From IMG/VR virus record IMGVR_UViG_3300024262_000013: 64,000 nucleotides of DNA. One strand, given 5' to 3'. The translations under genes were made by a program, and so were the position numbers. Position 1 is the stretch's first letter; every line of letters begins with the position of its first letter. Positions 5,177 to 59,668 of the stretch are shown here, one piece after another. Below the pieces are notes generated by a model. The model was not told the origin of the DNA. It was given only the letters and a program-made list of their open reading frames with translations, and ran no database searches. Source of the stretch: a virus. Taxonomy: Duplodnaviria > Caudoviricetes.

Positions 5177-5797
5177 ATGGGTAATAACAAACTTAAGTGG
5201 AGTCTTGAAAAACTTTTTAATTCTTTAGGTCGTAATATGGCTATGAAGTATTATGGGTTCGATTCCAAATATGAGGTTGTTAAGATTATAAATGTAAAAA
5301 CAGGTGATGAGGTTACTGACTTCGAAGGTGATATTGACTATGAGGTAATAGTGAAATCTAAGGACGACCTTCCTGAAATTTTTGATGTTAAAATTGAACC
5401 TCTGTGGAGGTACGGTAAGTTCGCTCAACCTATGGATTTGCAGTTTAACCTTGAACACATAACAAAATATATAAGTCCAAGTATAATTGTATCACTTGTT
5501 ACTCCTGAATGGAAAGAGGGCGATTTAGAATACACATCCGTAAAATCATTCGAAAAGAAATGGGGAAGGTCATTAGATTTACCCGCCGATGATTTTCAAA
5601 AAAACCCAAGTAGATGGGTAGAATTAAGTAATGGTTCAGTTGTCGATAAAATAACTGGAAACAGTTTTCCTTTAATGAGTAATGGATTAATTGATAAAAC
5701 TGAAGTATGGAACATAGCTCGAATTGATGAAGATGAATGGTGGGATTCGTTAGACAACAACGACAAACAAAATTTAACCGACGCCTTTAGTAAGTAA
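5177..5797 (+). CDS. hypothetical protein (206 aa)
   Basis: ORF track; abuts the previous gene. Confidence 0.75.
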   Translation: MGNNKLKWSLEKLFNSLGRNMAMKYYGFDSKYEVVKIINVKTGDEVTDFEGDIDYEVIVKSKDDLPEIFDVKIEPLWRYGKFAQPMDLQFNLEHITKYISPSIIVSLVTPEWKEGDLEYTSVKSFEKKWGRSLDLPADDFQKNPSRWVELSNGSVVDKITGNSFPLMSNGLIDKTEVWNIARIDEDEWWDSLDNNDKQNLTDAFSK

Positions 5798-7697: not shown

Positions 7698-8774
7698 ATG
7701 AAAGATATTAAACTTGTTAATATATTAAAAGAAACTGTTGTGGAGATGTATCCGCACGAAGGAGCCACGGATGTTGCGACTGTAGAATTTGGTAGAGCAA
7801 ACGTATGGTCAAAATTCGACAAACCAATTAACGTATACTTCAACGAATTAAGTAAGAGCCCTTCAGAAATATCCAACTCAAGTAAAATAGTTCTTACTGA
7901 TAAAAAATCAGGAGAAGATTATGTTTTCGATGCCGATGATATAAGAATTAAAAATGATAAAATGTGGATTAGTGTTAGGGACCTAAGAGAATTATATCCA
8001 AGATTCTTAGAAACATTGTTAGTTAAAGATGATAAGGTAAGAAATGAAAATCTTAATGTTAACACATTAAAAACAAAAGCCTCAGGAATACCTCAACTAA
8101 TATTAGATGTTTTAAAAGAAGTGTATCCAAATAATTGGGGAAAAATTTCTGAACCTGATTGTCAAACATTAGAGGGTGTGATAGATATCTTCCCAGCAAT
8201 GGAAGGTGAGAGATGGTCAATATTAAACTTCTTCGATACCAACCCAGGGGTTATACGAATCTTAGTAGAGAAATACCAAGACGAAAACGATGAGGTAACT
8301 TTAGAAGGGTTCAAAGATTTCCTAAGAGATAACAAAGAAGAGTTGTTCGGACAAGATAGTCCAATACTACAATCGTTAGTAAAAAGAAACCTACAGTCAT
8401 TCGAAAGAGGATGGAAGACAGAAGCCGAGGTCATAGACATCGTTAAGAGAGAGAATCCGACATTAACTGATGAAGATATATCACAATACTGTTTAGGGTC
8501 TGTAGAGGACCGTGTGAGTGGTGTAGACTTTAAAGTTAAGGGTAAAGGATACCAAACCAAACCAGCGTCTAAGATGGAGAGGTTAAAGAACGGAGGAGTA
8601 AGAGTTCAAACCTATGGTATGAGAGATTGGTACCAAAGAAAAAAAGAGATAGATTATATACTATACTCTAACGGTAAGAACATTGCCGTATTCCCAAACA
8701 AAAACTACAAAGTATCCAATGACGGTAAAACCGTTACACATTATGAGAATATTACTAAAGGTACGTTTGGATAA
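7698..8774 (+). CDS. hypothetical protein with possible C-terminal PD-(D/E)xK nuclease-like domain
   Basis: GWKTEAEV...EDRVSGVDFKV..YQTK pattern; leader MKDIKLVNILKE. Confidence 0.45.
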   Translation: MKDIKLVNILKETVVEMYPHEGATDVATVEFGRANVWSKFDKPINVYFNELSKSPSEISNSSKIVLTDKKSGEDYVFDADDIRIKNDKMWISVRDLRELYPRFLETLLVKDDKVRNENLNVNTLKTKASGIPQLILDVLKEVYPNNWGKISEPDCQTLEGVIDIFPAMEGERWSILNFFDTNPGVIRILVEKYQDENDEVTLEGFKDFLRDNKEELFGQDSPILQSLVKRNLQSFERGWKTEAEVIDIVKRENPTLTDEDISQYCLGSVEDRVSGVDFKVKGKGYQTKPASKMERLKNGGVRVQTYGMRDWYQRKKEIDYILYSNGKNIAVFPNKNYKVSNDGKTVTHYENITKGTFG

Positions 8775-8797: not shown

Positions 8798-8819
8798 TCG
8801 AACTTAAAGATAAATAACT

Positions 8820-9140
8820 ATGAGGAACATATACAATACTGAAATCGTAGGAGAAATTAATGACACACCACCTATTATAAACAGACATAACATTGTTGTT
8901 GAAACTAAATGGAATGGGTTTAGAATGATGGATAACTCATCTTTCACTGAATGGGTAAGTATGTTTATATTTCCTGATAGTGATAAAGCTGAATACTTTG
9001 CCGAACATTTCGAAAAAGGTATGGATAGGTTTCAAGAAGGTATGTTAAAGGGTGAGTATATCTTTCATAAGATAAATTGTCGTTACCCTATTCCTGAGAA
9101 GATTTATGCGGACCAATTACATATGACTGATAAATTATGA
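8820..9140 (+). CDS. hypothetical early protein (106 aa)
   Basis: ORF track. Confidence 0.7.
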   Translation: MRNIYNTEIVGEINDTPPIINRHNIVVETKWNGFRMMDNSSFTEWVSMFIFPDSDKAEYFAEHFEKGMDRFQEGMLKGEYIFHKINCRYPIPEKIYADQLHMTDKL

Positions 9141-9433
9141 GCAAATACCGAATAATCAGAGAAGAGTTCTATAATGGGAAAGGTATAGCATTCGATGTAT
9201 GTTTCTTCATACAACAACAAAAATCATTTCTATTCTTTAAGTGGTGGACATATGTCACACACGAAACTATCGGTATAAAGAGTCTAAAGAAATTCCCCCT
9301 ACACTTTAAAGGTGGAGTAATCGAAGCCGAAGAGTTTATAAAAGAAGTCCTAATTAAAGGTAATAGGTTTAAAGGGAACTATAAGTTCGTATTAAGAGAG
9401 TATGATTCTAATGGGATGGTAATAAAACTATAA
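9137..9433 (+). CDS. hypothetical protein (98 aa)
   Basis: ORF track; ATGA overlap with the previous gene. Confidence 0.7.
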   Translation: MSKYRIIREEFYNGKGIAFDVCFFIQQQKSFLFFKWWTYVTHETIGIKSLKKFPLHFKGGVIEAEEFIKEVLIKGNRFKGNYKFVLREYDSNGMVIKL

Positions 9434-10217
9434 TTTTTTTGCGTCTACATTTCTCAGGCGGCGGGTCTTTATAAAACTTTCTATTATAAACCTCAAGGTT
9501 ATAACTCCAAAGTTTCCTCAATGTATTATATAAGAGATTCCTTTATATAGAGTCTATAAGATAATACCCACCCATTACATATACACAGTAAAAGAAAGGG
9601 ATATTATATGGATATACATATAAAGGTTAAGAAAATAGGGTATCTATATGGATAAACATATAATCCCCGTAAAACAGGGTGGAGAGACAGTCTTATATAA
9701 TAAACACTACCTATAATTCTCCGTAAGGAGAAGAAAACCAAAGAGTAGTGTGGTTAAAGACTCATATATACCACCCTCTTATAATTAAATCACCTAAAAA
9801 CACGGTTTCATCTACGAAACGCTCTACAAAACACCACTTAGAACACCATTAACAGTGATATAGGGATGGTACCCTATAACTATTTCTAAATAGGGGATTC
9901 CGACAGTAAGGGAGGGGGTTATGACCATTAGTGAATACAATCACTAAAAAGTATAACTAATCAGGGATTTCACCGATGAAAAGAGGGTTTTTTAGGTATC
10001 TGTCGGAATAAACTCTTTGGAAATACCATTAGATGGTGTGAATATAATGATTTAATATACTTAATTAATCATTCATATGCCGGTATCGGATATTTCGGAC
10101 CGTTTTTCTCGACCTTCGGTCGGTCTTTTTGTTCTAAAAATTTTTTTTTAACGGGTCCTTCGTCCCGTATTAATAACACTATTTTAAGAAAGTCTTGAAA
10201 CATAAGGTGGTCACATA
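9434..10217. other. long structured non-coding region (candidate large ncRNA, origin or packaging site)
   Basis: No credible ORF; many nested inverted repeats, e.g. GGGTGG/CCACCC, ACACTAC/GTAGTGT, TTCTCC-GTAA-GGAGAA, ATTCCGACAG/CTGTCGGAAT; palindromic repeat TATATGGATAWACATATA at 9605 and 9645. Confidence 0.6.
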
Positions 10218-10228
10218 TATTTATATGT

Positions 10229-10744
10229 ATGGATTTTAATTTAATGAATAACATGTTTAATAAGATAATGCCTAAATCATATGATGATATTGCTAAATAT
10301 TCTAATATGGTTATGGACCACGAGGTATTAGATGGTAAGATAAAGGATATTGAATTAGACTTCGAACCCTCTAAAGAACCAATTAAATACGGTGGTTATG
10401 AAATGATACAACCGGGTACTCTCGTAATTAATGTGATTTTAAATACAGAAGGTTTTTATGAAATATCTGATAGTGTACCGGCCATTCAAGATACATTTAA
10501 ATTACGTCCTGAACTTGAAGCCGATAGTTTCTTAGAATTTAATGGATACGAATTTATTAAAAACATCCTCTTCCCATATATCGAGAAAAAGTTTCTTAGG
10601 TTAATGGGTTTATCATTAGGTGATGTACCTTATGTTGACTTCAATCTCGTTAACCATAAAGGTGAAACAATACTAACTTACGATGAAGATTTAGATACCT
10701 TTATTGGTTCAAAAAATAGTAGTGTTTGGAAAAAGATGTCTTAA
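10229..10744 (+). CDS. hypothetical protein (171 aa)
   Basis: ORF track; TATTTATA at 10218-10225. Confidence 0.75.
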   Translation: MDFNLMNNMFNKIMPKSYDDIAKYSNMVMDHEVLDGKIKDIELDFEPSKEPIKYGGYEMIQPGTLVINVILNTEGFYEISDSVPAIQDTFKLRPELEADSFLEFNGYEFIKNILFPYIEKKFLRLMGLSLGDVPYVDFNLVNHKGETILTYDEDLDTFIGSKNSSVWKKMS

Positions 10745-13311: not shown

Positions 13312-14154
13312 ATGGATAAATCAAAAATCGCCGAAGTAGTAAAAAAGTTTATTGAGAAAACTTTAAATAACGCAAAGACATCTAAACCTGGTGTAAGTTA
13401 TATTATTAATCGAATACTAAAATTACCAGCACTTAAGTTATTAGTGACTAATAATTTTACCCCTAAAGAAATAGTGGAATTAGCTTATATCGTATTTTAT
13501 TTGTTTGAGGGATACAGTTTTACGGAAGCGGATTGGAAAAGTAAAAACGAAGTGTATCTCGTTGTCTTAAATGAAGTGGGTGACAGTTATAGTCGAGAGG
13601 TTTCTTGTGATGATTGTTATGGTAATGGTCATTTAGAATGTGAGGAATGTGATGGTGAGGGTGAAATGGATTGTGATGAATGTGAAGGTACAGGTACAAC
13701 AACATCAGATGCTGATGATTCGAATGAGGATTGTGGTGGTTGTGATGGATTTTCACGGAGGTCTTGTGGTAATTGTGAGGGAGAAGCTCAAATAGAATGT
13801 CAATCTTGTGAAGGTAGAGGTGAGGTTGAAAATGAAGATGAAAGTATTTTCTTTAATAAAGTGGTTTGGTTTATCGGTGACCAAAACATGAAAGAAACTT
13901 TATCTGATATGAAATCAGAACTCGGAGAGGACTATACCGATAAGGTCTACGATTTATTTGACACATCAAAAGGTAGTGTATTTTTATCTATTAACATTAG
14001 CGAATGGGACTTCGAAGATTTATTTAGTTTTGGACAAGAAAATGGGTACGATATAGAAGGTCATACTCGAATTGAATCAATAATACCTATCGAGAATACT
14101 GAACCTAAAACCTACAAAATAGAGGATGACAATATTAGGTATCGGTTAATTTAA
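13312..14154 (+). CDS. protein with DnaJ-type CxxCxGxG zinc-finger repeats
   Basis: CDDCYGNG, CEECDGEG, CDECEGTG, CGGCDG, CGNCEG, CQSCEGRG; no J-domain HPD seen. Confidence 0.75.
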   Translation: MDKSKIAEVVKKFIEKTLNNAKTSKPGVSYIINRILKLPALKLLVTNNFTPKEIVELAYIVFYLFEGYSFTEADWKSKNEVYLVVLNEVGDSYSREVSCDDCYGNGHLECEECDGEGEMDCDECEGTGTTTSDADDSNEDCGGCDGFSRRSCGNCEGEAQIECQSCEGRGEVENEDESIFFNKVVWFIGDQNMKETLSDMKSELGEDYTDKVYDLFDTSKGSVFLSINISEWDFEDLFSFGQENGYDIEGHTRIESIIPIENTEPKTYKIEDDNIRYRLI

Positions 14155-14749: not shown

Positions 14750-15004
14750 TTAATATAACTCCTCAAGTATATTATTATACACTACTTTTCCATTACCGTT
14801 TAGGGTGTTGTTAGTTTTATATTGTTGTATACCAAGAGTACCCGTATTTGATTGTAACCAAAATGAGGCTGAAGGAATGGTCTCTATAGTGTATTCACTA
14901 ATGTCTTCAATATTAAGAACATTAAAAATTTCGTTTAAGTCTTTTTGTGTAAAACTACCGTGTATCTTTATTGTTTTGTTTTCTAAGTCTAAGGTAAATT
15001 TCAT
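14750..15004 (-). CDS. hypothetical protein (84 aa)
   Basis: ORF track. Confidence 0.65.
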   Translation of the reverse strand: MKFTLDLENKTIKIHGSFTQKDLNEIFNVLNIEDISEYTIETIPSASFWLQSNTGTLGIQQYKTNNTLNGNGKVVYNNILEELY

Positions 15005-22842: not shown

Positions 22843-22914
22843 TAGCCCGTAGCAGAATCGAACTGCTATTTCCAGGATGAAAACCTGGCGTCCTAACCGG
22901 TAGACGAACGGGCC
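22843..22914 (-). tRNA. tRNA-Glu (UUC)
   Basis: GGCCCGT/ACGGGCT acceptor; CCAGG-TT-TTC-AT-CCTGG anticodon arm; GTTCGATT T-loop. Confidence 0.93.
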
Positions 22915-23026
22915 AAATAAAAGAGAGACTTCGGGTCTTTCGAGGTTACTGATATATGGGGGTTAACCTTTACCTTTATCCATATAATCTCAGCTTCACT
23001 AATCTCTCTAATTGTAATGGGTTTAG

Positions 23027-23242
23027 TTAAACCAAATTCCACTTTTTTGCTGATAACATAATCGCCTCCTCATTGGTTAAAGTTGGTTTGTCTCTTATAA
23101 TATCCATCGCGGAGTACATAACCTCACTCCTTAATCCTTTTTTTCTTGCCAAGTTTAAAACATCGACATAATAGTTCGGGTCAAATTTTGGTAGTGTACC
23201 ATCTTCTTCCATATCTGCAATTTTACTAAGTATATTACCCAT
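23027..23242 (-). CDS. hypothetical protein (71 aa)
   Basis: Start moved to MGNILSK, since TATATTTG lies at 23271-23264. Confidence 0.65.
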   Translation of the reverse strand: MGNILSKIADMEEDGTLPKFDPNYYVDVLNLARKKGLRSEVMYSAMDIIRDKPTLTNEEAIMLSAKKWNLV

Positions 23243-23321
23243 AAGTGTTTTTTTATTAGAGTACAAATATATGACAAATATTTGATTAAAACAAAATTAA
23301 TAATAAAATATTAAATGCATG

Positions 23322-23366
23322 AAAAAACCATCATTAAGTGTAAAAAAGTTACCTAATGATGGTTTT
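23322..23366 (-). terminator. hairpin terminator closing the tRNA operon
   Basis: 13-bp stem AAAACCATCATTA/TAATGATGGTTTT followed by a U-run on the minus strand. Confidence 0.65.
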
Positions 23367-23408
23367 ATAGTGCAAAGTTAAAAAGTGAGTTCTTTAACGG
23401 TTTATTTG

Positions 23409-23744
23409 TTATCCGTTAATTACGGAATTATTGGGTTTATCTAATTGCCTATAAATCTCTGAGACATGTTCACTCATATTATTTATAGTTTTGTCTACTC
23501 TACTATCAATATGACGGTAGACTTCGCTCATATCACTCTCACTTTGATTGTGTAGATTATCCACATAATCTGTGAGTTCTTTTCGAATCTTTTCTGATTC
23601 ATTATACTGATTTTCGATTACTCGATTCAGTTGGTTTATTTCCACTTTTAAGGACTTAGTTGACATATAATTCACAAACGTACCCACAACCATTACTAAT
23701 ACAATGACTGTACATACACCTAAAATAAATGATGTTATTTCCAT
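23409..23744 (-). CDS. single-TM coiled-coil protein (111 aa)
   Basis: N-terminal TM followed by a heptad-rich region. Confidence 0.7.
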   Translation of the reverse strand: MEITSFILGVCTVIVLVMVVGTFVNYMSTKSLKVEINQLNRVIENQYNESEKIRKELTDYVDNLHNQSESDMSEVYRHIDSRVDKTINNMSEHVSEIYRQLDKPNNSVING

Positions 23745-23760
23745 AATTTCTAATTTTAAT

Positions 23761-23786
23761 TTAATTTTTATGTCAAAGAACTCACT
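23761..23786 (-). promoter_or_regulatory. boxA-like element GTTCTTTGACAT within a 26-bp direct repeat (second copy 24169-24194)
   Basis: TTAATTTTTATGTCAAAGAACTCACT identical at both sites; related motifs at 24718-24729, 25045-25056 and 52667-52678. Confidence 0.6.
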
Positions 23787-24076
23787 TCACTTTTTAACTA
23801 TTAGCACCATCTATAATATAATATAAATGGTCAAGCTGTAAACACCTAAGGTTGGAGGGTGTGTTTTACCTCTTACCAGATTCTTAACTGAATTCCACCA
23901 TATTACAATACAGGTGGTACACTTGATAGATTTAATATGTACTCTCAGCTCTTTTGGTTTCTGCAACGTTACCATTGAATTATCCTGTCGGGTGCAGACA
24001 TAGGTACTGAGGTTATACAATTTATATTCTACCTTTATTTAGTGATATCTCACAAGGTCATAGGTTTAACCTTTAG

Positions 24077-24148
<72 letters not shown>

Positions 24149-24193
24149 ATTTATTTTTTCTTAATTCTTTAATTTTTATGTCAAAGAACTCAC

Positions 24194-24270
24194 TGGTGGA
24201 CCTTGATGGACTCGAACCATCGACCTACGCATTATGAGTGCGGTGCTCTAACCAACTGAGCTAAAAGTCC
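24194..24270 (-). tRNA. tRNA-Ile2 (CAU, lysidine type), CCA encoded
   Basis: GGACTTTTAGCTCAGTTGGTTAGAGCACCGCACTCATAATGCG; resembles bacterial Ile2 rather than Met. Confidence 0.8.
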
Positions 24271-24473
24271 GTTAACAGTCTATTTTATCCAACTACAACT
24301 GTCACGGATGTCCCAATAAAGTATAATCAATATTGGTTAGGAATAAAGTTTTTATTTTTTAGAAGAACTCAAACTCCGACTAGCATACTCACTAGTTGAT
24401 TAGTCACTATAAGGATTCTACCTTATTTCTCTTCATGTATGACACATTAGTCAATGTTACTTTGACACGTTAG

Positions 24474-24547
24474 TACACCCATCAGGATTCGAACCTGAGA
24501 CCGTCTCCTTAGAAGGGAGATGCTCTATCCAGCTGAGCTATGGGTGC
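24474..24547 (-). tRNA. tRNA-Arg (UCU)
   Basis: TCTCC-CT-TCT-AA-GGAGA; GCACCCA/TGGGTGT acceptor. Confidence 0.93.
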
Positions 24548-24613
24548 ATATTTGTAGGGTTCTTTTTTAAAGTTACATAGTTCCTACTAGTATTGTGTAA
24601 CTCCCTACATTAG

Positions 24614-24698
24614 TACCGCTGGGCGGACTCGAACCGCCACGGGATTTCATCCCAACAGATTTTAAGTCTGTCATGTCTACCAATTCCATCACAGCGGC
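24614..24698 (-). tRNA. tRNA-Leu (UAA)
   Basis: ACAGA-CT-TAA-AA-TCTGT; long variable arm GGGATGAAATCCC. Confidence 0.93.
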
Positions 24699-24747
24699 AT
24701 TTATATTAATCTATAATTTCAAATAACGTTTTTGTCTTTCGACTATG

Positions 24748-24755
24748 CAAATATA
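24748..24755 (-). promoter_or_regulatory. internal TATATTTG promoter upstream of tRNA-Leu
   Basis: TAnnTTTG match followed by a boxA variant GTTATTTGAA. Confidence 0.55.
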
Positions 24756-24802
24756 CTACACAAAAAATCAACTAACAACTATCTTAACTAATTTTTTATT
24801 TG

Positions 24803-24876
24803 TAGGAATGGGGGGATTTGAACCCTCGACCTTGACTATATAAGAGTCCTGCTCTAACCAACTGAGCTACATCCCC
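24803..24876 (-). tRNA. tRNA-Ile (UAU)
   Basis: GGACT-CT-TAT-AT-AGTCA anticodon arm (G27xA43 mismatch); GGGGATG/CATTCCT acceptor; A73; one T-stem mismatch. Confidence 0.8.
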
Positions 24877-24934
24877 ATATTGAAAACACCTATAAATTAT
24901 GTAGAGGAGCAAAACTCGATTTTTGTGTTAGTAG

Positions 24935-25007
24935 TGACCCCTCAGGGGTTCGAACCCTGGACCCTCACATTAAAAGTGTGATGCTCTACCAGCTGAGCTA
25001 AGAGGTC
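24935..25007 (-). tRNA. tRNA-Lys (UUU)
   Basis: TCACA-CT-TTT-AA-TGTGA; GACCTCT/AGGGGTC acceptor. Confidence 0.93.
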
Positions 25008-44469: not shown

Positions 44470-45870
44470 ATGGGAAACTTAAAAGATAAAATTATAACGG
44501 AAGAATTAAAACAAATAGTTATTTTAATGAACTATGATAGGTCTAAGACTTTATTAGAACAAGGTGACGCTAAATTCGATATACAACAAACACAAAGACA
44601 CGCTGAACAACTTGGTGTAACTTACCAGGAGGCTAAAAGAATGGAAAACCCAGAATTATATAAATTAGCCGATAAATTTGAATGGGACCATGACATATCT
44701 GGTATAGTTGAAATAACCTTAGTTATGGCGGGTATTGCTGTTAGTATGACAGGAGTAGGGTTAGTGTCTGGTGTGGGTCCAGCGTTAATACTCGCAGGAA
44801 CTGCAGTAGGAGTTGCCGACGCACTTGTTTACTTCTCTGAAGGCGACCCATATATGGGTACAATGATGTTAGCCCTAAATTTAATACCTGGAGGTGAATT
44901 AGTTAGTATATTAACAAAAAAGGCGGCGGCAGAAACTGCTGAAGTCATTACCGAACAAACCATAAAACAAGCTAGAAGTGGAATGGGAAAATTAGGAAAG
45001 GAAATATTGACTGATGTTGAACAGGCGGCGTTAGACCAAGTATCGAGAGCTATGAAACAAGTCACCCCTGAGATTATTGCTAAAAATGCAAAATATGCTC
45101 TTGAAGCAATGCAAAAAACATTAAAAAGTATACCCCTATCTAAAACTATTGCTTTATTAATGGGATTATCTGGTAAAGTAGGTAAGACAGTTATTAAAGT
45201 AGGTAGAATAGCGATAACGGTAGATTTATTTTGGACATTATTTACCACACCCGAATCGTGGAGAAGTAAAATGAGAGATAAAAGTTCATTTTCTAAAATT
45301 ATGGATATGTTATATGATGGAAAATTAGATGATACAATAATTGATGGACTGTGGGGACTTTGGAATATGCTGTGGAATGAAGATGGTACTGAAAATACTG
45401 AAGGAAGGGAAAAATTTCAAACGCTTTTAGTTGATGATAATATTAGTGACGAAGAACTAGCAAATACGGAATACTCAAATAACCTAAACGAACTATTAAA
45501 TACAGAGTGGGAAAAAAGTTTGAATGATTTAGATTCTCAGTGGGGTGTAAATTCAGAAACAGTTAAATCACAGAAATCTAATTATGAACCTGTTAAATTT
45601 GATAATTTAATTAAAGGAAAGCAGACGATACGTAAAGGTCAGAAAGGCGATGTAGTTAGAGATATACAAAGAATGTTAGTAACTCTTGGATATTATTTAG
45701 GAAATACTGGTAAAACAAAAGATGGGGTAGATGGAGACTATGGTGATAAAATGGAGACAGCTTTATATAAGTTTCAAATAGATAACGACTTAGATGATTT
45801 TGATGGTATAGTGGGTAAAGATACGTCTAATAAACTTTATGAACTATACAAAGAAAAAAAAGGATTATAA
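44470..45870 (+). CDS. putative virion protein with hydrophobic helices and C-terminal peptidoglycan-binding domain
   Basis: ITLVMAGIAV...LILAGTAVGVA; IRKGQKGDVVRDIQRML...VDGDYG...FQ...DGIVG. Confidence 0.7.
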   Translation: MGNLKDKIITEELKQIVILMNYDRSKTLLEQGDAKFDIQQTQRHAEQLGVTYQEAKRMENPELYKLADKFEWDHDISGIVEITLVMAGIAVSMTGVGLVSGVGPALILAGTAVGVADALVYFSEGDPYMGTMMLALNLIPGGELVSILTKKAAAETAEVITEQTIKQARSGMGKLGKEILTDVEQAALDQVSRAMKQVTPEIIAKNAKYALEAMQKTLKSIPLSKTIALLMGLSGKVGKTVIKVGRIAITVDLFWTLFTTPESWRSKMRDKSSFSKIMDMLYDGKLDDTIIDGLWGLWNMLWNEDGTENTEGREKFQTLLVDDNISDEELANTEYSNNLNELLNTEWEKSLNDLDSQWGVNSETVKSQKSNYEPVKFDNLIKGKQTIRKGQKGDVVRDIQRMLVTLGYYLGNTGKTKDGVDGDYGDKMETALYKFQIDNDLDDFDGIVGKDTSNKLYELYKEKKGL

Positions 45871-52151: not shown

Positions 52152-52229
52152 TGGGGTGGAAGATGGGACTCGAACCCACGACCCTCGGTACCACAAACCG
52201 ATGTTCTAACCATCTGAACTACAACCACC
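52152..52229 (-). tRNA. tRNA-His (GUG), G-1 and CCA encoded
   Basis: TCGGT-TT-GTG-GT-ACCGA; G-1:C73; two U:U mismatches in the acceptor stem. Confidence 0.85.
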
Positions 52230-52276
52230 ATTATAAAAAAATTAAACCCCACCGATTGGAGGGGTTTAAATAGTTG

Positions 52277-52663
52277 TGGAGGCGGCGGGATTCGAACCCG
52301 CGTCTTGTTCAGTCCACCCATAAAGGACTACACGTTTAGGACAACATTAATTCACAATGTTCCGTAATATTTAGTTCAATTTTTACATCCTCCACTAACA
52401 ATAGATGTACGATTCAATTTAGGGTTTAATCGTTTTTCCACCACAACAACGGACTTCTGTTCATAGGTATATGTCCTGACCGACCCGATTCACTGTTTAC
52501 GTATTACGCTACAGCTACTTGTGCAGTTCTAAGTAAACCTAGAGCTGACATTTTGTTTAGTACGTTGCCGTCTAAAAAAGTTCCATCATAGATTTAAGTC
52601 ATAGATGAAGTTTGACTACGTGCCCCGTATAACTGACCCTGCCAATCAATTCCATTCGCCCCC
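52277..52663 (-). ncRNA. ssrA: tmRNA; tag GNVLNKMSALGLLRTAQVAVA (52569-52504)
   Basis: GGGGGCG/CGCCTCC acceptor with G3.U70; GGTTCGAATCCC T-arm; resume context TTAGAC-GGC-AAC; promoter at 52701-52694. Confidence 0.92.
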
Positions 52664-57649: not shown

Positions 57650-59668
57650 TTAATCCACTTTTTTTATTGTTAATTCATCTTCACTTAACATTTCAATAGT
57701 AAACGGGTTATTTTCAGTAATGGTACCACGAAGCACTTCCTCTGAAATCAAATCTTCAATTTTTTCTTGGATAGCTCTTTTAATTGGACGAGCACCGTAT
57801 TTCTCATCAAAACCTACACTAGAGATATACTCCTTAACTGAGTCACTAATAGTTATGTTATAGTTCATTTCATCTAAACGATTTGTCAATTTTAACAATT
57901 CAATATCAACAATTTGAGAAACTTCTTTTTCTTTTAAAGGGTTGAAAACCACTATCTCATCGACACGATTTAAAAATTCAGGTGTGAAATGATTCTTTAA
58001 TTCTTTTTGTATTAAAACTTTTTTCATTTCTTCATTATTTGACATTCGGTTGTTTGTTTCGAAACCAACACCTGTACCAAAATCCTGAAGTTTTTTAACT
58101 CCTAAGTTAGATGTCATGATAATCAAACAATTTTTAAAGTTTATCTTACGACCAAAACTATCGGTAAGGTGACCATCATCCATCATTTGAAGTAAAAGTG
58201 AAAAGATATCTTTATTAGCCTTTTCAATTTCATCAAACAATACAACAGAATATGGTTTGTTTTTTACCGCTTCAGTTAATTGTCCTCCTTGGTCATGACC
58301 CACATATCCTGGAGGTGAACCAATCAATCTTGACATGGTGTATTTTTCTTGGTACTCAGACATATCCATTCTAATAAGTGCGTCCTCAGCTCCAAAGATT
58401 TCCTTAGCGAGTTGTTTAGCTAAATGAGTTTTACCTACACCTGTAGAACCTAAGAAGATAAAAGAACCAATAGGACGATTAGGGTCTTTAATCCCGACAC
58501 GGTTTCTACGAATTGCCTTTGCAATCTTCTCAACCGCAAATTCTTGACCGATGACCGAGGTATTTAGACTATCTTCAAGATTTAATAATGATTCTTTATC
58601 GTCATTATTTAGTTTACTAACGGGTATTTTAGTCATAGTCGCAACTACACTATACACCATATCTTCAGTAATAGGTTTACGAGTTATATCTTTTTGTTTT
58701 TCAAACTTTTCCTTTTCATCGTCTAACTTTTTCAAAATCTTCTTCTCCTTATCTCTAAGTTCTGCAGCTTTTTCATATTGTTGAGATTTAACTACTTGAA
58801 TTTTCTCTTCTTTAATTGAAGATGCCTGTTCTTTAAGTTTTTCAATTACTTCAGGTAATTTAACATTAATCTGAGCGCTTGCTCCCACCTCATCCATAAT
58901 GTCGATTGCCTTATCAGGAAATTCACGGTCAGTGATATATCGGTCAGCGAGTGTAACACACGCCTTTAACGATTCATCACTATAAGTTACTTTATGGTGA
59001 AATTCATAACGGGATTTAAGGTTCTCAAGTATGATTAAAGTTTCTTTTGGTGTTGCTCCATCAACAATAACTTTTTGAAAACGACGCTCAAGAGCACCAT
59101 CCTTTTCAATATTCTCTCTGTATTCATCAAGAGTTGTTGCTCCAATACATTGGAGTTCTCCTCTTGCTAATGCTGGTTTAAAAATATTGGACGCATCCAA
59201 AGAGCCCGATGAATTACCTGCACCAATAATTGTGTGTATCTCATCAATAAAGACAATAATATCAGGATTTTCGTATAACTCATCTAAAATAACTTTTAAT
59301 CTTTCCTCGAATTGTCCACGATATTTAGTTCCAGCAACTATAGAAGTCATATCTAACGACACTATTCTTTTATCACATAGATTTTGAGGACAATCACCTT
59401 CAAAAATTTTCATAGCTAAACCCTCAACAATGGCAGTTTTACCCGCTCCTGGTTCACCAATAATAATTGGGTTATTTTTCTTTCGTCTTGAAAGTATTTG
59501 AGCAATCCTATTAATTTCATTTTCACGTCCCACTACTGGGTCAAGTTTACCTTGTTCCGCATGTTTAATAAGGTCACGAGAAAAATTATCTAAAACAGGT
59601 GTTTTAGAGTTACTCATTTCTTTAGGGTTTCTTGCCCCTTTATCGTTTGGGTCTACTTCGTCTATCAT
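57650..59668 (-). CDS. clpC: ClpC-type AAA+ ATPase lacking the N-terminal Clp repeat domain
   Basis: GEPGAGKT and GSTGVGKT Walker A motifs; [14 protein letters not shown] motif; [11 protein letters not shown]. Confidence 0.92.

Follow-up and report, generated by a model that had tools for sequence, protein, structure and literature searches.

What does a giant phage keep in almost 800 nucleotides (nt) of DNA that hold no recognisable gene? The question is raised by positions 9434-10228 of the IMG/VR virus record IMGVR_UViG_3300024262_000013, a stretch of 64,000 nt (the window). This gap separates the genes of a 98-amino-acid (aa) and a 171-aa protein and was confirmed to hold no open reading frame (ORF) of at least 90 aa. 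The window has about 30% G+C, most of its proteins received no family in PHROGs and Pfam scans, and its relatives are marine metagenomic contigs of 160-430 kb, with Tara Oceans scaffolds among them. Judged from these features, the source is an uncultured marine giant phage. The hosts of the clade are probably Bacteroidota. A previous sequence-only reading, made on the window without database searches, had noted the missing ORFs and many nested helices, and had proposed either a large structured RNA in the size class of GOLLD, ROOL and OLE or a replication or packaging site. On the comparisons given below, this phage clade has in the gap a non-coding locus that is functional and modular. We put at roughly 60% the probability that its 3′ two-thirds, a core at 9677-10135, specify a folded plus-strand non-coding RNA of about 460 nt, whose transcription, strand and start point we infer from sequence.

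Folding of the single sequence contributed little to this assessment. The folding energy was below that of shuffled sequences on both strands (z of −2.65 for the plus and −2.39 for the minus strand) and therefore does not discriminate among the readings; it is the comparison with relatives that provides the strong evidence. About 45 distinct marine metagenomic copies of the element were gathered through searches with the flanking proteins, look-ups of the encoding contigs and one pattern scan of metagenome contigs, and the gene order around the element was the same in every lineage. Identity to the window over the element was 97.9% in contig G001, 93.7% in L003 and L004, 93.1-93.5% in L028-L035, 89.6% in L006, about 88% in L016-L021, 79.6% in L024 and 69% in L022, and more distant copies were found by nhmmer profile search (L039-L043, L054, L068, L072, L075, L084-L086 and L045). 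The 89.6% of L006 compares with only about 72% for its flanking coding DNA and 70-72% for the flanking proteins. Followed in a 60-nt sliding window, the identity steps up at the stop codon of the 98-aa gene and mostly remains between 0.88 and 0.95 over the element, with dips at 9628-9687 and 9748-9806. A non-coding stretch that is more conserved than the genes around it must be under selection of its own.

The element is confined to this group in the collections that were searched and occurs once in the window. A BLASTN search with the gap returned no match among 50,697 phage records, and of 185,579 prokaryote species genomes scanned for a conserved 25-mer, only Undibacterium had a match, of 27 nt and ascribed to chance. 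Extra copies of the palindrome, the terminator hairpin, the module A motif, GGGATTT and the start-region motif, all described below, were searched for in the window, and none was found above chance. A 14-mer common to 9926-9939 and 14890-14903 was dismissed as being at chance level.

Base pairing was assessed domain by domain, starting with the rod of four nested helices (P1-P4) that forms the 5′ part of the core. In alignment A3 (24 sequences, 18 distinct), 94.4% of the cells are paired, and compensatory changes occur in eight of the 20 pairs, a count reached by none of 500 shuffles. The covariation score was 0.207, compared with 0.094 for the shuffles and at most 0.091 for controls with slid partners. 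Examples are a change from G-C to U-A in P1 (L068), from A-U to G-C and from U-A to A-U in P2, and from U-A to C-G and from C-G to U-A in P4. Read on the plus strand, the apical loop always has the form G-N-N-A (GUAA, GAUA or GUUA).

The multi-helix domain that follows, D4, was tested with a covariance model (R1) and an alignment of 30 sequences (A7) that was itself fitted to the structure. Under these terms, 97.1% of the cells are paired and five of 34 pairs show compensatory changes, which one of 500 shuffles also reached; the covariation score was 0.063, where shuffles gave 0.037 and slid controls no more than 0.026. Over D3-D5 as a whole, the score was 0.068 against 0.053 (0 of 500 shuffles). 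One D4 hairpin alternates between C-G (14 sequences) and G-C (five sequences). The long stem, to which the perfect 10-bp long-range pair of the sequence-only reading belongs, has nine inner pairs that are invariant in all 30 sequences, and every one-sided change in the stem preserves pairing on the plus strand (U-G, U-A, C-G, G-U). R1 recovers every lineage and also the very divergent L045 copy (46.7 bits, E 5e-9), in which the long stem carries a compensatory change from A-U to C-G. Six lineages (L022, L082, L085, L040, L075 and L068) lack the peripheral stem of D4, and three others (L086, L043 and L084) have a different one. Stems that are present, absent or replaced, together with loops that are lengthened on kept stems, are the kind of variation typical of structured RNAs. 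Covariation among homologues, which the sequence-only reading had named as a check on an RNA, was therefore found above shuffles in both the rod and D4.

The remaining parts of the core are conserved as well. The GTTTC/GAAAC stem of the joining region between rod and D4 is intact in 21 of 26 sequences and has one U-U mismatch in the remaining five, and its loop letters vary. Downstream of D4, a block TATGCCGGAATCGG..TTCGGACC is conserved in all lineages including L045, with moderate pairing support (83-91%). The core closes with three hairpins with CUUCGG-like loops, of which the second was called as a plus-strand terminator by a terminator scan (hairpin 10109-10123 plus TCTTTTTGTT; four sites in 1.6 kb against 0.7 expected). 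It has the G+C-rich hairpin and the U-run on the transcribed strand by which intrinsic terminators are recognised. The hairpin is invariant in 26 of 26 sequences and is followed by T-rich sequence in every lineage, in most of them with a plain run of at least four T.

Two further pairings were tried and rejected. Pairing of AAGAGGGU (9981-9988) with ACCCUCUU (9773-9780) failed because lineages of the L016 type have lost the G-run with no compensating change, and a long-range CGGU/GCCG pairing, proposed once by RNAalifold, showed one compensatory case against six mismatches. A naive scan for further covarying columns and pseudoknots was swamped by clade-defining substitutions and hence uninformative. 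As a separate observation, one relative holds a second ORF-free stretch of about 680 nt (L092, 1098-1780; about 90.0-90.7 kb of G005), 15 kb upstream of its element. This stretch and the D4 interior have in common GGGATTT, a hairpin (GATTTCA-TCGG-TGAAATC) and GGGATTTTCT, and a similar AAGGGTGATATATTTAT motif stands before the next gene.

For D3-D5, the plus strand is favoured because the non-Watson-Crick cells are mostly G-U (74 against 17 A-C), the one-sided changes preserve wobble pairs and the terminator is on that strand. The core RNA would be read from left to right and start a few bases 5′ of P1, with TATAAT at 9659-9664, in the second palindromic repeat, as its probable promoter in the lineage of the window. 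It would then fold into the rod of 100 nt, a hairpin and the multi-helix domain closed by the invariant stem of about 20 bp, and end at the hairpin and U-run of the terminator. The product may act in trans, as a ribonucleoprotein scaffold or as a decoy, through sequence-specific binding by a phage or host partner. Such recognition is suggested by the invariance of both strands of the long stem and by the recurrence of G-rich motifs (of the GGGGAUUU type, GGGGAUUCC, GGGAUUUC and the G-rich hairpin loop).

The distant relatives add a complication at the 5′ end of the core. In L039-L043, L045, L068, L075, L084 and L085, the position of the variable linker is filled by a minus-strand gene of 110-125 aa, which lies between module A and the rod and of which the window retains no trace; its products are mutually 33-52% identical. 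The start codon of this gene lies inside the rod (GGGTGnnnnCAT), and P2 covers the bases just upstream of the ATG. Since the rod is antisense to the start of this gene in these relatives, a role in antisense control may be ancestral or added. The rod could work on the minus-strand leader, on a plus-strand antisense RNA, or on both. It covaries within lineages that lost the minus-strand gene, and is therefore no mere relic of it.

Several of these results weigh against a single core RNA. The modules are separable, as the minus-strand gene between module A and the rod demonstrates, and the lineages with this gene have coding sequence just 5′ of P1, so that no promoter common to all lineages is visible. 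In the rod, non-Watson-Crick cells are A-C more often than G-U (11 against 3), mostly in the lineages with the minus-strand gene, an excess that would fit a rod acting on the leader of a minus-strand messenger RNA (mRNA). With a plain MAFFT alignment, the conservative count of covarying pairs in D4 was weak (five pairs, reached by 38 of 500 shuffles). Most D4 pairs never vary and are uninformative for or against pairing, and a DNA inverted repeat to which a dimeric protein binds would likewise agree with a long stem whose two arms are invariant. Finally, a more distant relative that is 98% complete is entirely without the element, which is therefore not essential to this phage group. The element is also absent from L005, in which the 171-aa gene and the last 40 nt before it are kept.

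Outside the core, the gap is made up of further modules, which are listed with all other features in Table 1. Module A is always found directly 3′ of the gene for the protein of about 98 aa, and in relatives with the minus-strand gene it sits between convergent genes. In L043 and L084, its apical loop has 14-15 additional nt while the stems are retained, and one of its pairs alternates between A-U and G-U (nine sequences each). As part of the best explanation, it is most likely a separate cis element of the 3′ end of the upstream gene or of a convergent gene pair. The linker that follows is replaced or lengthened in L022, L024 and L082. The two direct repeats between linker and core contain the 18-nt palindromes, which were found again with their spacing of 40 bp (three matches against 0.41 expected) and occur only in lineages without the minus-strand gene. 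The second palindrome runs into the TATAAT box, 13 nt 5′ of the core; box and spacing make the repeats a candidate promoter or operator of the core RNA. The last 90 nt or so of the gap are most likely, within the same explanation, a separate cis element that would serve as promoter of the 171-aa gene. Here, AAGGTGGTCACATATATTTATATGT stands immediately 5′ of the ATG of that gene (10204-10228), and TTGAAA at 10191-10196 together with a TATATT/TATTTA box very near the ATG suggests that its mRNA leader may be very short or absent.

The helices named in the sequence-only reading were all found again in the window. One of them, ATAGGG (9860-9865) with CCCTAT (9872-9877), is not kept in G001, L016 and L006, and a conserved alternative, CACCA/TGGTG, overlaps part of its sequence. 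The proposal of a large structured RNA was borne out as far as conservation above coding DNA, covarying helices, a variable peripheral stem and a terminator can bear it out. Its extent had to be revised from one RNA of 780 nt to a core of about 460 nt with separable modules.

Table 1. Features of the non-coding locus and its surroundings; positions refer to the window unless a relative is named.
Feature	Position	Strand	Description
358-aa protein gene	7698-8774	+	upstream of the element; kept in all lineages, including those without the RNA
98-aa gene	9137-9433	+	upstream border of the gap
Module A	9445-9520	+	hardly varies among 27 distinct sequences, which cover all lineages
Module A, small hairpin	9456-9459 / 9465-9468	+	AGGC/GTCT
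Module A, main hairpin	9474-9480 / 9509-9515	+	AAACTTT/AAAGTTT, with inner AACC-TCAA-GGTT stem
Variable linker	9521-9591		poorly conserved
Direct repeats	9592-9623 and 9632-9663	+	two copies of 32 nt, each containing an 18-nt palindrome (9605-9622, 9645-9662)
Rod, P1	9677-9682 / 9771-9776		GGGTGG/CCACCC
Rod, P2	9689-9694 / 9757-9762		AGTCTT/AAGACT
Rod, P3	9704-9710 / 9745-9751		ACACTAC/GTAGTGT
Rod, P4	9717-9722 / 9727-9732		TTCTCC-GTAA-GGAGAA, loop GUAA at 9723-9726
Joining region	9777-9830	+	conserved CTCTTA...AAATCACC, then hairpin GTTTC 9805-9809 / GAAAC 9816-9820
D4 multi-helix domain	9831-10039	+	closing helix ACACCA 9831-9836 / TGGTGT 10034-10039
D4 hairpin	9844-9848 / 9867-9871	+	CACCA/TGGTA
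D4 long stem, first part	9882-9890 / 10016-10024	+	ATTTCTAAA/TTTGGAAAT
D4 long stem, second part	9897-9906 / 10000-10009	+	ATTCCGACAG/CTGTCGGAAT, perfect 10-bp pair
D4 peripheral stem	9907-9962	+	hairpin 9928-9947: TTAGTGA 9928-9934 / TCACTAA 9941-9947
D4 hairpin with G-rich loop	9978-9982 / 9988-9992	+	GAAAA/TTTTT
A/U-rich hairpin	10046-10052 / 10067-10073	+	AATGATT/AATCATT, within 10040-10109
GCCGG..CGG and GGA..CC hairpins	within 10040-10109	+	CUUCGG-like loops
Intrinsic terminator	10110-10135	+	CGACC-TTC-GGTCG (10110-10122), then T-run; proposed 3′ end of the RNA
Next-gene start region	10136-10228	+	A/T tract, hairpin ACGGG 10151-10155 / CCCGT 10164-10168, then start of the 171-aa gene
171-aa gene	10229-10744	+	downstream border of the gap
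Minus-strand gene of relatives (examples)	L039 4732-5064; L043 4512-4889; L045 4727-5068	−	no known family

A rival to the single RNA is a patchwork of independent cis elements. Module A would in this case terminate or stabilise the transcripts of the flanking genes, which are convergent in some relatives; the palindromes would be operators; and the 3′ hairpins would be terminators, with the promoter of the 171-aa gene after them. The rod would then be a promoter and structured leader that controlled translation of the minus-strand gene and was left behind after gene loss. This agrees with the separate occurrence of the modules and the insertion of the minus-strand gene between two of them, with the position of its ATG inside the rod and of P2 just upstream, with rod mismatches that are mostly A-C and hence G-U on the minus strand, and with downstream genes that vary among lineages. 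However, the rod still covaries where the gene has been lost, as shown by a P2 pair that switches between U-A and A-U among the window, L016 and L022. D4, with about 210 nt, nested long-range helices, a variable peripheral stem and a distance of at least 150 nt from any start codon, is of a size, nesting and position that neither a leader nor a terminator explains, and its wobble pattern fits the plus strand, opposite to the minus-strand gene. Moreover, simple terminators and operators are not normally 90-100% identical over 450 nt while neighbouring proteins drop to 55-70%. We therefore consider the patchwork rather unlikely as an account of the whole locus. A cis-acting riboswitch or attenuator leader was rejected as the downstream gene is not constant: it encodes 171 aa in the lineage of the window, 119 aa in L039-L042 and a 62-aa zinc-ribbon protein in L043. 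If the locus is instead a replication origin, either the palindromes and the long inverted repeat could be bound by protein as DNA, or an R-loop primer transcript could arise there, as with ColE1 RNA II and the T4 origins. The palindrome-bearing direct repeats, AT-rich stretches at 10040-10075 and 10136-10150, the invariant inverted-repeat arms, G-runs that could stabilise an RNA-DNA hybrid and the weak nuclease-fold matches of the upstream 358-aa protein (PD-(D/E)XK type) would all suit an origin. Yet the repeats, which had been called iteron-like, number only two and are confined to the sub-lineage of the window, distant relatives having the minus-strand gene in their place. The cumulative GC (guanine-cytosine) skew of the window tracks gene orientation and has no extremum at 9.4-10.2 kb, and family scans of the neighbours revealed no recognisable initiator, helicase or primase adjacent to the element. 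The compensatory and wobble-preserving changes point to single-strand pairing rather than to duplex half-sites, and the related phage of 98% completeness manages without the element. An origin thus appears improbable.

A genome terminus or packaging site (pac or cos), the other half of that suggestion, appears very improbable. Contig G001, the nearest of the relatives compared, starts 720 nt upstream of the element, and several metagenomic contigs end within it, but these ends do not stack: they are scattered over 550 nt (at about 9520, 9816, 9845, 9902, 9965, 10002 and 10073 in window coordinates), as is seen where assemblies break at an island that is conserved among strains occurring together. 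Contigs of 199, 290 and 431 kb have the element in their interior, and no terminase gene lies nearby. We give still less credit to a decaying gene or an unrecognised small or recoded ORF, even though in L045 and L046 the D4 homologue is overlaid by a 187-aa ORF that gene callers predict and that carries a lipoprotein-like signal. Conservation here exceeds that of real genes, the longest stop-free frames are 41-87 aa and differ among lineages, the indels of 1-2 nt are not multiples of three, and no frame is open across lineages. The L045 ORF found nothing in the window by tblastn, and its GIF repeats are GGGAUUUU motifs read in frame. In L045, this ORF runs at 5228-5791 (plus strand; signal ..LISC) over the D4 homologue at 5314-5533, and it either arose by chance or represents a protein gene that overprints an RNA gene. 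A 61-aa minus-strand ORF at 10069-10254 was likewise ruled out as conserved coding sequence by indels of 1-2 nt between lineages. The folded plus-strand RNA thus remains our preferred reading of the core. A much fuller version of it is possible but doubtful: that the core founds a new class of large folded RNAs in giant marine Bacteroidota phages, with a trans-acting architecture, a role like that of GOLLD and ROOL, partner capture by the long stem and the G-rich motifs, and an antisense side role in some lineages.

PHROGs and Pfam searches with nine neighbouring proteins and with the small proteins of relatives gave nothing usable. For the 358-aa protein, an AlphaFold2 model (pLDDT, the predicted local distance difference test score, of 79.6) gave weak Foldseek matches to the PD-(D/E)XK nucleases I-Ssp6803I (probability 0.8), NhoI and Eco15I, and Pfam gave a weak match to RE_MjaI at residues 257-297. 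The 106-aa ORF at 8820-9140 (plus strand) is an insertion relative to the other phages: L003, L006, L007 and L009 align to about 8800-8830 and pick up again at about 9130-9136 with nothing between, and contig G001 begins near the insertion point. Elsewhere in the window, a 280-aa protein with DnaJ-type CXXCXGXG zinc-finger repeats (13312-14154, plus strand), a 466-aa protein with a C-terminal endolysin domain (44470-45870, plus strand) and a 672-aa ATP-dependent protease (57650-59668, minus strand; phrog_4871, E 6e-242) are encoded.

It remains to compare the element with known RNAs. At the gathering score, cmscan of the whole window returned only transfer RNA (tRNA) genes, eight in number, and one transfer-messenger RNA (tmRNA). 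Seven of the tRNA genes form a cluster at 22843-25007 (minus strand), and the full-length tmRNA at 52274-52663 (minus strand; 79 bits against a gathering score of 47) adjoins the tRNA at 52155-52228 (minus strand). With E up to 10, the region and two divergent homologues gave scattered chance hits and none to GOLLD, ROOL, OLE, raiA or HEARO, so the Rfam search that the sequence-only reading had proposed yields no known family, and membership in the GOLLD, ROOL or OLE families does not hold.

Among smaller phage RNAs, lambda OOP and P22 sar are cis-encoded antisense RNAs of 70-80 nt. The rod resembles them in that, in related phages, it directly faces the start codon of a divergently read gene and the bases upstream of this codon; unlike them, the RNA is kept in the lineage of the window where that gene is absent, and most of it lies outside the overlap. 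ColE1 RNA II and the T4 origin transcripts are primer RNAs that form R-loops. What they share with the element is structure, a length of a few hundred nucleotides and a non-coding location with G-rich runs, whereas the element shows no origin signal and ends in a terminator, the opposite of a persisting hybrid.

OLE RNA is a molecule of about 600 nt from Bacillota that forms a ribonucleoprotein with OapA, OapB and OapC, and possibly bS21 (PMC12054373). The element is similarly large and highly conserved, with invariant blocks that suggest protein partners, but OLE is bacterial and not of phage origin, and the element has neither an Rfam match to it nor Oap-like neighbours. GOLLD and ROOL are large ornate RNAs of phages and prophages, often located near tRNA islands, that form RNA-only cages in cryogenic electron microscopy, and GOLLD combines a conserved 3′ part with a variable 5′ part (bioRxiv 10.1101/2024.12.08.627333). 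From these the element differs by matching neither covariance model, by a shorter core of about 460 nt, by a family confined to one marine phage clade and by its surroundings, which consist of small unassigned genes with the nearest tRNA (22843-22914) 12.6 kb away. It agrees with both in being phage-encoded, several hundred nucleotides long and rich in nested helices, and with GOLLD in its strongly conserved 3′ and more variable 5′ part. The comparison places the element most likely in a new family of this large ornate kind, outside those catalogued. If true, a conserved RNA of 460 nt would be added to the RNA biology of phages, in giant phages that also carry tRNAs and a tmRNA, and its rod would provide a worked case of an RNA module that in some lineages overlaps a protein-gene start and in others outlives the loss of the gene. 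Large structured RNAs without an assigned role are rare, and GOLLD, ROOL and OLE, with which the element is best compared, proved to be unusual molecular machines or cages.

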